Origin: an uncultured Candidatus Saccharibacteria bacterium
GTDB taxonomy: Bacteria; Patescibacteriota; Saccharimonadia; Saccharimonadales; JALRHH01
Length of the DNA: 64,000 bases
Assembly: GCA_964559915.1 (NCBI GenBank)
Contig: CAZLJP010000002.1
Coordinates: 2,423-66,422, forward strand
Direction of reading: 5' to 3'
Shown: positions 2,946 to 39,642 of the stretch, one piece after another
Layout of the letters: each line of letters begins with the position of its first letter
How positions within the stretch are numbered: position 1 is the first letter of the stretch
Program-made: the position numbers and the translations under genes
The notes under the pieces: model-generated
What the model was told of the DNA's origin: nothing
The model's database searches: none
Seen by the model: the letters and a program-made list of their open reading frames with translations, nothing else

Positions 2946-3037
2946 AACGTTATATCCTACGGATATTGCTGCAAGTACTCGTAAAATATAAGCAAGCTCC
3001 TACTTTCCTCCGTTCTTTTGCTATACTATCTATAATA

Positions 3038-4261
3038 ATGAAACTGACATTTAAGCGGGTGAGGGCGTTTTTCTTAGATAACTGGGCGCTGGGATTATTA
3101 ATCGCAGGTGGTGCGGCCATAGCCTCTTTTCTGCTGCTTTTCAGGCTCGGTAGCTTAGTCCAGGGCCTGTCAGTAGACGAGTTTGCCCTACAACAGCAGT
3201 TAGCGCACAACCAGTTTTCTCTTGGCACAATTATCCGTGACCCATTGTTCTTGCCATACTATGTGGGCTTGTATCTACTGCAGCTCACGCCATTTCATGG
3301 CCCTACGGCAGTACGTAGCATTGGGGCATTATTCGGTCTACTGGGTAGTCTTGGCTTCTTTTATGTTCTGCGGCACTGGTACACTACTAGAATTGCGTTC
3401 TTTGGTACCGCCCTGTTCGCTACGTCTGCGTGGTTTTTGCACAGTGCACGGTATGCCTCAGAAGATGCTACATATCTATTACTGCCGCTGCTGATTGCTG
3501 GTGTTATTGCACTACAAGCCCGAACACGCGCCAAACGGGCGGTGTTAGCAGTTGTGGTATTTGGTCTATTAGCGCTGTATATACCAGGTGTTATTTGGCT
3601 CATTGCCGCTGCCTTGTTCCTTAAGCGGCAAATCATTATCAGTGCTATCAAGCTGCAACCAGGCTGGTTTAATGCCATATTAGGAGTACTCACAGCTATA
3701 TTACTCAGCCCACTAGTTGTTATGCTAGCCAAGCCGTTACGAGGTAGCAGTTGGAGCCACAATATTCTTGATTTGTATGGACTACCTACGCGGCTGCCTA
3801 GTGTTGGTGACATTGCACATAACATCAAAGATACTTTCGCTGACATCTTTATATATAGCCATAACGGGCCAATTTACACAGCCGGGCACTTACCGTGGCT
3901 TGATATAGCCACCGTAGCCCTAGTCATTATTGGTGTGTATCAGTTCATCAAACACCGGGCATTAGATCGCAGCAAATTGATAGCCATTGTCGGCATTGCG
4001 AGCTTTATTTTAGTAGCCTTGGGCGGTGAAGTACCTTTGCTAGTTTTTCTGCCATTTGTATACTTAGTCGCCGTAGAAGGACTCAAGTGGCTGCTTGACA
4101 GCTGGCTCCGTGTCTTCCCACGTAACCCGTTTGCACGCAGCTTTGGCATCGTTATTATCGTACTCATTGTCGGTACAATATCTCTGTACCAGCTCAATCG
4201 ATACTTTCTAGCGTGGGGATTTAATCCTGAGACTCGCGCGGTATTCAACAAGCTGCCATAA
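3038..4261 (+). CDS. polytopic membrane glycosyltransferase, GT-C fold (GT39/GT83 ArnT/PMT-like), tentative
   Basis: About 12 predicted hydrophobic helices; DE motif (SVDEF) in the first extracytoplasmic loop. The track ORF starts at 2966, but the ATG at 3038 lies 10 nt after TATACT (3022-3027). Confidence 0.5.
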   Translation: MKLTFKRVRAFFLDNWALGLLIAGGAAIASFLLLFRLGSLVQGLSVDEFALQQQLAHNQFSLGTIIRDPLFLPYYVGLYLLQLTPFHGPTAVRSIGALFGLLGSLGFFYVLRHWYTTRIAFFGTALFATSAWFLHSARYASEDATYLLLPLLIAGVIALQARTRAKRAVLAVVVFGLLALYIPGVIWLIAAALFLKRQIIISAIKLQPGWFNAILGVLTAILLSPLVVMLAKPLRGSSWSHNILDLYGLPTRLPSVGDIAHNIKDTFADIFIYSHNGPIYTAGHLPWLDIATVALVIIGVYQFIKHRALDRSKLIAIVGIASFILVALGGEVPLLVFLPFVYLVAVEGLKWLLDSWLRVFPRNPFARSFGIVIIVLIVGTISLYQLNRYFLAWGFNPETRAVFNKLP

Positions 4262-4369
4262 ACTGCTACAATAGCTACGTTATCACAAGGGGTGAAGACA
4301 GAGGGTTGAGAAATAAAACTCTACCCTGAATCTTTTACCTCTCACCCTAATACGACTGCAAGGAGAACC

Positions 4370-4663
4370 ATGAGTAAATTTGACCAAGCAAAGATGCTAT
4401 TAAAACTGAAGAAAATGCAGAAAGAACTGCAGAAAATGACCATTGAAATAGAAAAAGGTGATGGCGCTGTAGTCGTAGAGATTACGGGTGAACAAAAGCT
4501 TAAGAAAGTACGTATTGACCCTGACTACGTAGACCTTGATGACATTGGCCAGCTGGAACGCTGGGTTGAAGATGCCGTCAAAGAAGCGATTGCTGAAAGT
4601 CAAAAGATTGCTGCAGAGAAAATGGGCCCCATGATGGGCGCACTGGGCGACCTGGGATTGTAA
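4370..4663 (+). CDS. ybaB: YbaB/EbfC family nucleoid-associated protein
   Basis: 97 aa; typical size and coiled N-terminus; conserved position between dnaX and recR; AAGGAG SD at 4360-4365. Confidence 0.85.
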   Translation: MSKFDQAKMLLKLKKMQKELQKMTIEIEKGDGAVVVEITGEQKLKKVRIDPDYVDLDDIGQLERWVEDAVKEAIAESQKIAAEKMGPMMGALGDLGL

Positions 4664-37671: not shown

Positions 37672-37746
37672 TCCCGGGTGGCGCAGCGGTAGCGCAGTTG
37701 ACTGTTAATCAATTGGTCGCCGGTTCGAATCCGGCCCCGGGAGCCA
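37672..37746 (+). tRNA. tRNA-Asn (anticodon GUU), CCA encoded
   Basis: 75-nt cloverleaf read by hand: acceptor TCCCGGG/CCCGGGA, anticodon stem GTTGA/TCAAT with loop CTGTTAA, T arm GCCGG-TTCGAAT-CCGGC. Confidence 0.92.
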
Positions 37747-37752
37747 TGAAAG

Positions 37753-37778
37753 AAGACTCACATCTGTGGGTCTTTTTT
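37753..37778 (+). terminator. rho-independent terminator after tRNA-Asn
   Basis: 9-bp stem AAGACTCAC/GTGGGTCTT, 4-nt loop, T6 run. Confidence 0.8.
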
Positions 37779-37836
37779 CATGCTTCTGAGTCGGATTTGA
37801 ACCGGATCTTTTGTGAAACAAAAGCGGTTCGATAAG

Positions 37837-37876
37837 CAAGGCCACGCGCAGGAGCTAGCTCCGAGCATGGCTGCTG
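37837..37876. repeat. copy A of a 40-nt conserved core (GGAGCTAGCTCC hairpin inside a longer helix)
   Basis: 31/40 identical to 40348-40387; two base-pair positions covary between the copies. Confidence 0.6.
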
Positions 37877-37888
37877 GTTATATGTAAT

Positions 37889-37908
37889 AATCCGGCCCCG
37901 GGAGCCAT
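37889..37908 (+). repeat. exact 20-nt direct repeat of the tRNA-Asn 3' end (aatccggccccgggagccat)
   Basis: Identical to 37728-37747; att-like duplication 142 nt downstream of the tRNA. Confidence 0.9.
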
Positions 37909-37916
37909 ACAAAGAG

Positions 37917-37940
37917 CCCACCATTTTAGGTGGGTTTTTT
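37917..37940 (+). terminator. rho-independent terminator nested inside a 25-bp inverted repeat
   Basis: Stem CCCACC/GGTGGG, loop ATTTTA, T6 run. Confidence 0.7.
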
Positions 37941-37962
37941 GTATGGCTCCCGGGGTCGGATT
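37938..37962 (-). repeat. inverted copy of the tRNA-Asn 3' end motif (one mismatch)
   Basis: tttgtatggctcccggggtcggatt is the reverse complement of 37889-37913 with one substitution. Confidence 0.85.
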
Positions 37963-38291
37963 AACAGAACGTTCGATAATTTGACCGATCAGGGAAAATT
38001 ATATGCCGAAGCTAAGAATGACAAGTCCTATAAGAAATAAAGTCATTCCTGGCCTGAAGCTATAATCCGGCCAAAATCACAGGTCGCCCGGTTAGGTCTT
38101 CAAGGGCTATCGCAGGAATTCATTCTGAGAAAGCCTGTAGAAGTGCATCAGTCGGCCGATAGAGCCAATATCATAGTTAGAAATCCTAAATCGCCGAAAA
38201 TAACAGAAAAACAGACAAGACGAACGAACTTATTGCCGGCATTCTACCGATAATCAACCATAACAAATAGAAAATCCGTGTAAAATATCTT

Positions 38292-38777
38292 CTATTTACC
38301 GAATAACTGCGTTGAAAGCTCTGGTTCATCGGTTTCGGTCAGCAGATAAATACTGGCATTATCAAGTTCTTGTCTTGTACTACTATTCAAACCAAATGAC
38401 TGGCTAAAGATTTCTAGTATTTTGTGCTCTGAATCATCTCGTGCAACTCGGTTAATCGAAATCTTCTGGCATGCCAAACAGAGATGGATTAACATAATCT
38501 CACCTAGTCGATAATAGCCTTCGTGCTTAAATGTTAAGCCGATTGGCTCCATGCCGCCACAACAGGTTGCACGGCGGTCACCCTTAGTCTCGTCAACATG
38601 TTTTGACCAAAGGCACCAGTTGCAGTGGTTACGGTTGACCGTACCCATAATGTCGTTGATAACGACAAACTGTTTACAGTGCGAACAACGGAAGCCACCA
38701 GCTTTATGTTCTCGATTCCATTCCTGTTTTCTACGTTTTTTGTAATCTAATTCATCACTATACTCATAGCGTTTCAT
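38292..38777 (-). CDS. RNHCP domain-containing Cys-rich protein
   Basis: 161 aa; CSHC, NRNHCNWC, CCGG and CLAC cysteine clusters matching the RNHCP-domain pattern. Confidence 0.7.
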   Translation of the reverse strand: MKRYEYSDELDYKKRRKQEWNREHKAGGFRCSHCKQFVVINDIMGTVNRNHCNWCLWSKHVDETKGDRRATCCGGMEPIGLTFKHEGYYRLGEIMLIHLCLACQKISINRVARDDSEHKILEIFSQSFGLNSSTRQELDNASIYLLTETDEPELSTQLFGK

Positions 38778-38792
38778 CTATATCCCTACATG

Positions 38793-38817
38793 AAAAAACC
38801 AGCCAATACTGGCTGGT
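38793..38817 (-). terminator. rho-independent terminator inside the 5' leader of the RNHCP gene (attenuator segments 3:4)
   Basis: Minus-strand RNA ACCAGCCA-GTAT-TGGCTGGT followed by TTTTTT, 16 nt upstream of the SD (AGGGA) and ATG at 38777. Confidence 0.7.
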
Positions 38818-38880
38818 CATGCTGGATAGGTAGATGTACTAACTATTTTCTAAATTGATGTTCGAGTTAAGCTGTTTTTT

Positions 38881-38929
38881 GACCAGCCAGAAACTACCGC
38901 CTCGATAGCGGTGACGACTTCTGCACTGG
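38881..38929 (-). promoter_or_regulatory. candidate antiterminator (segment 2) and anti-antiterminator (segment 1) of the RNHCP leader
   Basis: RNA CTGGCTGGTC (reverse complement of 38881-38890) is a perfect 10-nt complement of terminator 5' arm GACCAGCCAG (reverse complement of 38809-38818). It can alternatively pair with CCAGTGCAGAA (reverse complement of 38919-38929). Confidence 0.45.
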
Positions 38930-39185
38930 TTGTGGTTTTATATCTGTAACTTAACATACATAGAAATTTTGGCACATAGATATATGTGCGTCAAATAATT
39001 GTTAGGTGTGAGGCTTCTATTTACAGGTATTGCAAGGTTAATATTCAATAACCCCAACAAGGTCGGTGTCAACTGTTTCTTCTATCGTGTTGGCTAGCTC
39101 GCAGTACCGGTACGCACATACGGCAACTTCATGCCAAAACTTCCTTTATCAGTCGTAACTTACACTCATCAAAATCCACACTTGC

Positions 39186-39215
39186 GGTTCGAAACTCGTC
39201 TGCTACCGGGAGCCA
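39186..39215 (+). repeat. tRNA-3'-end-like motif copy (ggttcgaaactcgtctgctaccgggagcca)
   Basis: Shares GGTTCGAA and CGGGAGCCA with the tRNA-Asn 3' end; internal 4-bp stem CTCG/CGGG with an 8-nt loop; followed by the terminator CACTTTG/CAAGGTG and TTTTTGTTT. Confidence 0.6.
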
Positions 39216-39273
39216 AGCATAAGCACTTTGTTGAAAGGCAAGGTGTTTTTGTTTAATTTGCTAAAATAATCAA

Positions 39274-39642
39274 ATGATAGAAATTGGCATTGAAACATCA
39301 ATTCTAGAAGACATCCTCTCTGGCAAAAAAACTATTGAATGCAGGCTAGGCAAGCAAAAGTTTCTGAAGATTAGGCCTGGAGACGTATTAAGCATTCGAG
39401 AAGATACATGGAAAGGTGACAAGATACTTCGCAGTATTCCAAATAGGGCAGAGATAAAGGTCACTCAAATTTTATATTTTGAAACTTTTACTGAGGCGTT
39501 CGCATCAATAGACTTTAAGGAAGCCATCCCAAGTGCAGCCTCGCCCAGTGAGGCAGTGGAAGCATATCGTAAATTTTATACTTCGGAAGACGAAAAAAAG
39601 TACGGGGTGGTAGCTATATATTTTGAACTCTTGCAGTTCTAA
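39274..39642 (+). CDS. ASCH (PUA-like) domain protein
   Basis: 122 aa; LSGKKTIECRLGK...IRPGD pattern typical of ASCH domains. Confidence 0.55.
   Translation: MIEIGIETSILEDILSGKKTIECRLGKQKFLKIRPGDVLSIREDTWKGDKILRSIPNRAEIKVTQILYFETFTEAFASIDFKEAIPSAASPSEAVEAYRKFYTSEDEKKYGVVAIYFELLQF

Follow-up and report, generated by a model that had tools for sequence, protein, structure and literature searches.

Two kinds of described leader-peptide systems are among those closest to the element reported here. One is the leaderless design of Actinobacteria. The ilvBNC genes of Corynebacterium glutamicum are preceded by a three-hairpin attenuator with a leaderless leader peptide (PMC11857589), and leaderless short open reading frames (ORFs) encoding polycysteine are found in mycobacteria (10.1101/834739). 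The other relies on an upstream ORF (uORF) that responds to disturbed translation. The tylosin leader of Bacillus subtilis yxjB (tlrB) is such a stall-sensing uORF (PMC6851288), and toiL, the uORF of topAI-yjhQ in Escherichia coli, senses several classes of ribosome inhibitors (PMC12121999). The present work concerns the leader of a gene for an RNHCP-domain protein (PF12647) on the minus strand of a stretch of 64,000 nucleotides (nt), referred to as the window, from an uncultured Candidatus Saccharibacteria bacterium (GenBank assembly GCA_964559915.1, contig CAZLJP010000002.1, positions 2,423 to 66,422). Judged from its sequence and from comparison with its relatives, this leader is likely to be a ribosome-mediated transcription attenuator of the trp type with a leaderless leader peptide.

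To our knowledge, almost nothing is known about gene regulation in Patescibacteria. In a full-text literature search, RNHCP was not mentioned in a biological sense and no such leader was described in Patescibacteria. Attenuation of this class is textbook knowledge, and what is new is the family together with its hosts and its target.

Conservation of the Leader and Its Link to RNHCP

All elements of the leader are packed into the 216 nt 5' of the RNHCP gene, and two routes were used to follow them in other genomes. The retrieval of RNHCP homologues gave 594 proteins, the close ones being annotated as Saccharimonadales or Saccharibacteria. A protein-profile scan with one genome per species yielded 22 RNHCP loci, 15 of which carried the same leader in the same place; these belong to Saccharibacteria, an unclassified Patescibacteria metagenome-assembled genome (MAG), a Levyibacteriota MAG and a MAG labelled Parcubacteria. 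The second route was a gene-blind scan of metagenomes, in which the 3' half of the leader alone served as the pattern (CTATCCAG..CCAGCY..GCTGGTTTT). It returned 60 loci, of which seven were chance matches lacking the 5' elements and 53 were true leaders. An RNHCP frame came next in all of these wherever sequence past the terminator exists, frameshifted in three of them. The leader was also found in three closer relatives, fetched separately, with 79–81% protein identity.

Altogether, the whole leader was found 5' of RNHCP in 69 Patescibacteria loci (Saccharimonadales, one Levyibacteriota MAG and the one MAG labelled Parcubacteria). The elements share one order: promoter, UAUGUUA, ACCAC..GCCA, a CCCCUG/GGGG hairpin, UUGGCUGGUC, AAAAUAGUU ... 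ACUAUCCAG, GACCAGCC-loop-GGCUGGUUUUUU, Shine-Dalgarno sequence and ATG. This arrangement is well beyond chance. The alignment used below holds 64 distinct leaders, 16 of them protein-anchored and 48 derived from the pattern, which fall into 25 clusters at 75% identity. Among the protein-anchored loci, the leader was absent at the RNHCP genes of Paceibacterales, Gribaldobacteria, Chloroflexia and Proteobacteria.

Three loci of the protein scan illustrate other upstream regions. A divergent Saccharibacteria locus (L013, 2780-3003) has a promoter and a terminator-like hairpin (ACCAGUCA-CUGU-UGACUGGUUUUU) only, with no antiterminator. The RNHCP ATG of a Paceibacterales locus (L018, ~2950-3003) lies 5 nt past a TATAAT box, with the leader absent, and no leader elements were seen upstream of RNHCP in a Gribaldobacteria locus (L021, ~2950-3003).

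Terminator, Antiterminator and Associated Helices

The RNHCP gene is preceded by an intrinsic terminator, GACCAGCCAG-UAUU-GGCUGGUU followed by six U, with a stem of 8–9 base pairs and a helix that is nearly invariant across the 64 leaders. The U-tract is separated from the RNHCP ATG by 15 nt, which include the Shine-Dalgarno sequence AGGGA (38787-38783). Because this distance is so short, the terminator leaves RNHCP no space for a promoter of its own, and the gene needs read-through.

The 5' arm of the terminator (segment 3) has an alternative partner further upstream. Within segment 2, CUGGCUGGUC (38890-38881) complements GACCAGCCAG (38818-38809) perfectly over 10 nt, and in the alignment columns 80-90 and 188-199 are paired in 91% of cells. 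Pair 89:189 of this antiterminator covaries (UA in 45 leaders, CG in 12, UG in three, unpaired in none). Bases 197-199, which belong to the terminator loop, covary with 80-82 just 5' of GGCUGG, a pattern to be expected only if the alternative helix forms. The covarying positions were not fixed by the search pattern. A cis-acting choice between termination and read-through into RNHCP is supported by this comparison of sequences.

Segment 2 can pair with segment 1 as well. In this 1:2 helix (P1), 71% of cells are paired between columns 33-43 and 81-89, and the changes at 39:85 and 42:82 are compensatory; a 6-nt insert lengthens segment 1 in the window genome and in a few relatives. The helix is capped by hairpin H, which is 82% paired and whose pair 60:72 occurs as CG (50 leaders), GC (12) or UA (one). 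The minimum free energy (MFE) fold of 38965-38778 reaches -53.1 kcal/mol (z = -4.65), and none of 200 shuffles was as stable. It contains the 1:2 helix as ACCAGU/GCUGGU plus CAGAAG/UUUCUG around the ACCGCU/GGCGGU hairpin, and the terminator forms too.

Two further helices frame these segments. P0 joins the first codons of the uORF to the linker past segment 2, with arms that are clade-specific: GUUAAG/CUUAAC in the window, GUUGAG/CUCAAC in L032 and GUAAGUAAUAAA/UUUAUUACUU in L010. The duplex energy of the arms with their own partner was -7.33 kcal/mol, against -5.23 ± 0.26 kcal/mol with permuted partners; none of 5000 permutations was as low, and the result was unchanged with a single representative per cluster. 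P3 lies between segment 2 and the terminator. Pairing of its columns 147-151 and 169-173 is seen in 95% of cells, with covariation at the fifth pair (UA 35, CG 7, UG 7). The helix (AUAG/CUAU) and its flanks AAAA and CCAG are almost invariant, while the loop, like the linker, is variable in length and sequence. Stops in all three frames stand beside P3 in 27 of the 64 leaders. It is possible that P3 is a pause hairpin melted by the terminating ribosome, a source of backstop stop codons or a protein-binding site.

The CUAUCC that follows P3 is complementary to the GGAUA of the RNHCP Shine-Dalgarno region (AAGGAUAUAG), the sites being 38822-38830 and 38778-38786, and the two are paired in the MFE fold of the window. 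This pairing was rejected as a general feature: judged by eye from fold and alignment, it is possible in a Saccharimonadales subgroup only, and the Shine-Dalgarno sequences of other clades differ.

At the 5' end, the promoter matches the consensus at 9 of 12 positions in a consensus scan and has the TG extension; boxes of the TTGACA/TATAAT type in relatives line up with the TTGAC and the -10 box of the window. A 12-nt inverted repeat, 92% complementary, is present at 38963-38974 and 39132-39143 (GAAATTTTGGCA / TGCCAAAACTTC), and one of its arms overlaps the -10 box and the transcription start of the leader.

Much of this region had been outlined in a first-pass annotation made from the letters of the window alone. 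The mutually exclusive 1:2, 2:3 and 3:4 topology that it described is borne out, since every pairing it named is present in the sequence and the leader recurs in relatives. Its proposal that RNHCP is controlled by conditional termination gains from the covariation of the antiterminator and from the 15-nt gap to the ATG, and its promoter, TTGACG-N17-CAAAAT, is the one that aligns with the boxes of relatives. The palindrome GCACATA/TATGTGC that it noted in the promoter spacer (38989-38972) exists, with a spacer of 4 nt rather than 3, and is not conserved in the closest relatives. The 7-codon ORF that it placed before segment 1 (ATG at 38961) occurs in the window genome only, and its ATG probably lies 5' of the point where transcription begins. 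The conserved uORF begins at the next ATG, 4 nt further on and in another frame; because the wrong small ORF had been chosen, the reading frame through segments 1 and 2 was missed.

The Leader-Peptide Reading Frame

The uORF begins at the conserved AUG of UAUGUUA. It was present in all 66 leaders with sufficient upstream sequence, starting with ATG in 62, GTG in three and TTG in one and comprising 25–37 sense codons, and it was also seen in the three close relatives. From the start to the end of segment 2, this frame is free of stops in 64 of the 64 aligned leaders, compared with 10 and 9 for the other two frames. The distance from the ATG to segment 1 is 18, 21, 24 or 27 nt; the frame is kept there and on to the 5' arm of hairpin H in all 64. 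Past the hairpin, the frame over GGCUGGUC varies among the leaders (37/14/13), which read LAG, SGW or WLV. This indicates that the trait conserved beyond the hairpin is openness and not the peptide. The stop always lies 3–40 nt past segment 2, and in 34 of the 64 leaders it falls in the cluster of stop codons adjoining P3. As judged from the alignment, the first ~15 codons of the uORF act like coding sequence; beyond them the openness is conserved rather than the peptide, and the nucleotides are conserved for pairing.

A Shine-Dalgarno-like 4-mer precedes the uORF in 1 of 66 leaders only, and a TAnnnT hexamer is located 6–12 nt (mode 8) 5' of the start in 63 of 66. The uORF of the window has a predicted 5' untranslated region of about 2 nt and no Shine-Dalgarno sequence. 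Since 65 of the 66 lack this sequence and the start falls 6–12 nt past a TAnnnT box, the leader mRNA is presumably leaderless or nearly so. Translation of the uORF is likewise predicted.

The codon content of the frame was examined with amino-acid attenuators in mind. Threonine, mostly as ACC, is the first segment 1 codon in 46 of the 64 leaders; it is enriched and not universal. The ACCA of this codon is also required to pair with UGGU, and the identity of the codon is inseparable from the structure. Threonine or another single amino acid was rejected as the signal, as threonine is not universal and its codons are not rare in the window genome. It should be noted that a run of regulatory codons defines the amino-acid subclass and not the attenuator mechanism. 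In a hand tally, NAY codons were locally in excess before segment 1 in about half of the protein-anchored leaders.

The features described so far, and the short ORFs from other phyla discussed below, are collected in Table 1.

Table 1. Coordinates of the RNHCP leader, its gene and comparable short ORFs (window numbering, except where a locus handle precedes the position).
Feature	Position	Strand	Basis or remark
Promoter: -35 TTGACG (38994-38989), 17-nt spacer, extended -10 TGcCAAAAT (38971-38966)	38966..38994	-	Consensus scan, alignment to relatives
uORF: ATG 38957-38955, 35 sense codons (MLSYRYKTTTSAEVVTAIEAVVSGWSKNSLTRTSI), stop TAG 38852-38850	38850..38957	-	Three-frame translation, alignment
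P0 5' arm GUUAAG (uORF codons 1-3), pairs with linker past segment 2	38950..38955	-	Fold, permutation test
Segment 1 (anti-antiterminator 5' strand), ACCAC AACCAGU G CAGAAG, uORF codons 8-14 (Thr-Thr-Thr-Ser-Ala-Glu)	38918..38936	-	Fold, alignment
Hairpin H (ACCGCU-AUCGA-GGCGGU), tip of 1:2 helix	38896..38912	-	Fold, alignment
Segment 2 (UUUCUGGCUGGUC), partner of segment 1 or of segment 3; uORF frame over it any of three among relatives	38881..38893	-	Fold, alignment
P0 3' arm CUUAAC, linker past segment 2	38866..38871	-	Fold, permutation test
P3 hairpin and conserved flanks: AAA-AUAG (38849-38843), variable loop, CUAU-CCAG (38829-38822)	38822..38849	-	Alignment; uORF stop adjoins
Segment 3 (GACCAGCCAG), terminator 5' arm or antiterminator 3' strand	38809..38818	-	Consensus scan, covariation, complementarity
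Intrinsic terminator: stem-loop 38818-38797, U-tract 38798-38793	38793..38818	-	Consensus scan, fold; paired in 98% of cells over 64 leaders
RNHCP Shine-Dalgarno AGGGA (AAGGA in relatives)	38783..38787	-	Sequence and relatives
RNHCP-domain protein gene, 161 amino acids	38292..38777	-	Pfam PF12647, E = 1.2e-24; ATG at 38777
Short ORFs of TetR-less RNHCP-rsgA operons	L090:2787-2822, L091:2851-2901, L092:2790-2828, L093:2335-2391, L094:2103-2144		

Proposed Mechanism

The following course of events is proposed. Transcription would start at the AUG or 1–3 nt before it and yield a leaderless leader mRNA, on which a 70S ribosome would read the 35-codon ORF across segment 1, hairpin H and segment 2. 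If no ribosome is present, or if it has gone past, two helices would form, P0 between the 5' end and the linker and P1 between segments 1 and 2. Segment 3, left unpaired, could then build the terminator together with segment 4, which would keep RNHCP off. A ribosome on segment 2 (P-site at about codons 19-28) would likewise lead to the terminator. A ribosome delayed within the first ~15 codons would cover P0 and segment 1 and leave segment 2 exposed. The exposed segment 2 would catch segment 3 as it emerges, forming the antiterminator; no terminator could form, and RNA polymerase would enter RNHCP.

This direction of the switch is the one suggested by folding models, in which the ribosome was represented by an unpaired footprint from -12 to +14 nt about the P-site. 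Of the 64 full leaders folded without a ribosome, 52 preferred the terminator. Placing the P-site at codons 1-8 gave a preference for the antiterminator in 56–80% of leaders, and placing it at codons 16-28 gave one for the terminator in at least 88%. In transcripts cut before segment 4, which stand for the point at which the choice is made, pairing between segments 2 and 3 was ~100% as long as the P-site was within codons 1-15 and dropped to 0% within codons 20-26.

As for the sensed signal, our best guess is that translation slows down or is arrested early in the uORF. This could be brought about by translation stress or by ribosome-targeting compounds; a shortage of charged tRNA-Thr or tRNA-Ala is less likely. 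It is also our best guess, from its gene context, that the RNHCP protein so induced belongs to the sphere of the ribosome and translation.

Weighing of the Evidence and Alternative Explanations

Several observations weigh against a trp-type attenuator at this locus. There is no universal run of codons for a single amino acid (runs of at least two threonines in 25 of 64 leaders, no threonine in codons 5-16 in seven of 64), so the classical amino-acid logic does not hold, and the regulated gene is not biosynthetic. Support for P1 is moderate, since 71% of its cells are paired and the U-to-C change at column 89 is not followed. Truncated transcripts preferred the antiterminator in 53 of 64 cases even without a ribosome; for this reason, the ribosome-free off state depends on P0 and P1 forming first, that is, kinetically and during transcription. 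The full leader of the window, whose P1 has the 6-nt insert, favours the terminator at equilibrium for most ribosome positions. The predicted outcome rests on kinetic, co-transcriptional arguments, and the folding models are rough and support the geometry, not the rates. Finally, a plain attenuator does not account for the near-invariant P3 and its flanks (AAAAUAG ... CUAUCCAG). For 48 of the 64 leaders, the search pattern itself forced some of the apparent invariance of the terminator and of CUAUCCAG; among the 16 protein-anchored ones, where this bias is absent, 13 have CUAUCCAG intact.

The conserved P3 is the starting point of two other explanations. According to one of them, attenuation depends on an RNA-binding protein, possibly the zinc-rich RNHCP itself in an autoregulatory loop, which would bind P3 with its AAAA and CCAG flanks near segment 3 and bias the choice, either alone or on top of the uORF. 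A near-invariant helix and flanks around a freely varying loop are typical of a protein site, the confinement of the leader to RNHCP is what autoregulation would predict, and the protein is rich in conserved Cys and His residues. However, binding of RNA by RNHCP is without support: its AlphaFold model is poor (predicted local distance difference test score, pLDDT, of 67), Foldseek against the Protein Data Bank (PDB) gave no match below E = 0.3, and a PDB sequence profile search and NCBIfam were both without result. P3-like motifs elsewhere in the window are near chance and unconvincing (three versus 0.65 expected, with three reached by 5 of 100 shuffles). A protein site also leaves the open frame, the frame-preserving indels and the start codon at the transcription start unaccounted for, and we regard this explanation as unlikely. 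A riboswitch for a metabolite or ion, with a ligand pocket built from P3, its flanks and the 2:3 helix (or from P1 and hairpin H) and with an incidental ORF, would explain the competing terminator and antiterminator and the conserved nucleotides left unpaired around P3, as well as the conservation of the leader sequence over lineages of the Candidate Phyla Radiation (CPR). It is nevertheless improbable. An incidental ORF would not stay open in 64 of 64 leaders across three frames with indels that preserve the frame; the linker and the P3 loop vary in both length and sequence, and the motif is bound to one gene family rather than to a metabolic regulon.

Database searches are in line with this. 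With Rfam 15 at gathering thresholds, two tRNAs were the only matches in the whole window, and at E<=10 the region 38600-39400 gave a chance CRISPR-DR match only, with no T-box, so that a T-box leader was rejected. The first-pass annotation had not recognised a known riboswitch class here, and none was matched. Its suggestion of a riboswitch loses ground, as the would-be aptamer is a conserved ORF that looks translated, and no indication was obtained that zinc or another metal is sensed. The evidence favours the alternative that it had also named, namely that translation is what the leader senses.

It could also be argued that the region is an independent small gene for a protein of 25–37 amino acids, or a small RNA, with its own promoter and terminator, and that RNHCP is expressed by constitutive leak-through with no decision being made. 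Promoter, ORF and strong terminator do form a complete unit, and terminated attenuator RNAs that act in trans exist in other bacteria (PMC6614838). Yet the peptide is unconserved past codon ~15, where the frame shifts, and a covarying antiterminator that includes terminator-loop bases would be pointless if there were no switch. RNHCP starts a mere 15 nt past the U-tract and so depends on read-through, and the unit was never seen without RNHCP, which makes an independent gene the least credible of these explanations and a very improbable one. The ribosome-mediated attenuator remains the reading that we consider likely.

RNHCP in Other Phyla

The RNHCP protein has many conserved Cys and His residues, and the genes around it in other bacteria are informative. 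Outside the CPR, a gene for an RsgA-family GTPase lies directly 3' of RNHCP or overlaps it in 8 of 8 loci examined, which come from a Vibrio plasmid, Tenacibaculum, Halosquirtibacter, a Spirochaetales MAG and four others. A Chloroflexia MAG has the reverse order, rsgA and then RNHCP, with a 4-nt overlap. On a Streptomyces plasmid, two RNHCP genes adjoin genes for a FusB-like FBP_C protein and an aminoglycoside phosphotransferase. The loci outside the CPR are L086, L088-L094, L022 and L087, and Pfam was used to check neighbours.

A TetR gene is found directly 5' of three of the eight RNHCP-rsgA operons. All five operons without TetR have a short ORF with a strong Shine-Dalgarno sequence instead, located past a promoter-like site and 150–400 nt upstream. 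The encoded peptides are MTAFVLMVSPF, MSIFVSQDVPVQGIAG, MKEIVTMVVVFS, MSIFAFACGDVPVQGKIG and MSAIVIRDVPVQG. Three of the short ORFs have MS(I/A)(F/I)..DVPVQG in common, and a downstream GAACAGGA(A)C element is complementary to the DVPVQ codons (GAUGUUCCUGUUC). As far as the sequences tell, RNHCP seems to have here a second family of leader-peptide attenuators, unrelated to the first. In one of these operons (L093), an anti-Shine-Dalgarno-like CUCCCUUUCC was observed opposite the RNHCP Shine-Dalgarno sequence. We take the hydrophobic peptides of the MSIFV type to resemble macrolide arrest peptides such as ErmCL, a likeness that is offered as a lead only.

From these contexts, RNHCP seems to belong to the sphere of the ribosome and to be repeatedly under inducible, often uORF-based control. 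This fits a sensor of slowed or arrested translation without proving one. A wider proposal, which we put forward tentatively and hold to be possible rather than probable, is that the uORF gauges ribosome performance. A slow or arrested 70S ribosome, caused for instance by ribosome-targeting compounds from hosts or neighbours or by defective small subunits, would turn on RNHCP, a zinc protein that is still uncharacterised. Together with the RsgA-family 30S GTPase, TetR and the short leader peptides found elsewhere, RNHCP might then form a widespread and unrecognised ribosome-stress or antibiotic-response module, of which the CPR attenuator would be the most conserved sensor.

If the leader works as proposed, Patescibacteria would have their first described cis-regulatory attenuator with deep conservation, and ultra-small episymbionts would use leaderless translation and transcription-translation coupling for regulation. 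The leader would also offer the first functional handle on PF12647, by making a role in ribosome stress or antibiotic response testable. The advance lies in a new family and a lead rather than in a new principle, and its value is for RNHCP and for regulation in the CPR.

Genomic Surroundings of the RNHCP Module

Within the CPR, no conserved neighbours of RNHCP were found: neither SmpB, ASCH nor RsgA is nearby in the other loci, and there is no common downstream gene. The RNHCP modules frequently adjoin tRNA or tmRNA genes. Directly 5' of the leader promoter in L003 lies a tRNA-like sequence (2539-2612) with the end ...CGCGCACCA; it was not called by Rfam, which finds a minus-strand tRNA ~220 nt further up. 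A tRNA lies just downstream of the module in L017 (3500-3571), and in L001 a tmRNA lies ~780 nt downstream (4260-4655). This adjacency and the lack of synteny suggest that the module relocates.

The module in the window is flanked on both sides by att-like repeats (37728-37963 and 39183-39248), with no integrase, and the repeats may be the scar of an integrated element. On one side, an exact copy of the tRNA-Asn 3' end (AATCCGGCCCCGGGAGCCAT, 37728-37747) is found at 37889-37908 and an inverted one at 37936-37962; together they make up a palindrome whose arms are 35 nt long and in which a CCCACC/GGTGGG hairpin is nested. Between the palindrome and the RNHCP stop, ~330 nt (37964-38291) have no convincing ORF and no RNA family match; a 47-amino-acid ORF (38186-38329) overlaps the end of RNHCP. 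On the other side, a tmRNA or another plus-strand RNA gene was considered for the 496-nt intergenic region, because smpB is 1.2 kb away and a piece of the form ...GGTTCGAAAC...CCGGGAGCCA is present at 39183-39215 (CCGGGAGCCA at 39206-39215). This candidate was rejected, as ARAGORN and Rfam gave no match there. The GCGGTTCGAAAC..CCGGGAGCCA piece (39183-39215) is a degenerate copy of a tRNA 3' end, and a terminator-like hairpin (39221-39248, plus strand) stands next to it.

Comparison with Known Systems

The classical amino-acid attenuators of Proteobacteria (trp, his, thr, leu, ilv and pheA; Trp_leader, His_leader, Thr_leader and Leu_leader in Rfam) have a short ORF over segment 1, as does the RNHCP leader, for which translation is predicted. 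In both, the 1:2, 2:3 and 3:4 pairings are mutually exclusive and an intrinsic terminator directly precedes the structural gene. What decides the outcome in the classical systems is where the ribosome stands, and the same is proposed here. In contrast to them, the RNHCP leader has no Rfam match, no universal run of regulatory codons and no biosynthetic target. Its uORF is predicted to be leaderless, is longer (25–37 codons) and runs through segment 2, and the leader has the additional P3 and a nucleotide conservation that extends over CPR lineages. Riboswitches that work through a terminator and an antiterminator share the expression platform; the sensor of the RNHCP leader, however, is a conserved ORF, with no demonstrable aptamer and no known class.

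The leaderless attenuators of Actinobacteria have a 5'-terminal AUG without a Shine-Dalgarno sequence, as is predicted for the RNHCP uORF. A 5' hairpin can hide their start and also act as an anti-antiterminator, much like P0 and P1, and a stalled ribosome reshapes the structure downstream, as proposed for the RNHCP leader. In contrast to the RNHCP leader, which has no universal codon run and precedes a gene that is not biosynthetic, the actinobacterial elements respond to a defined amino acid through a run of codons and stand before matching metabolic genes, and the mycobacterial ones act on a ribosome-binding site and not on a terminator. The organisms are unrelated, and the likeness is one of design, with no sequence similarity being claimed.

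The uORFs of erm/cat, tlrB and toiL are sensors of translation stress placed over genes outside amino-acid pathways, and by analogy the RNHCP leader may be one of their kind. Such logic would fit, on circumstantial grounds, because RNHCP is linked to RsgA, FusB-like proteins, TetR and short leader ORFs in other phyla. The output is where they differ: erm leaders sequester a Shine-Dalgarno sequence and toiL acts through Rho, whereas the RNHCP leader ends in an intrinsic terminator with a covarying antiterminator.

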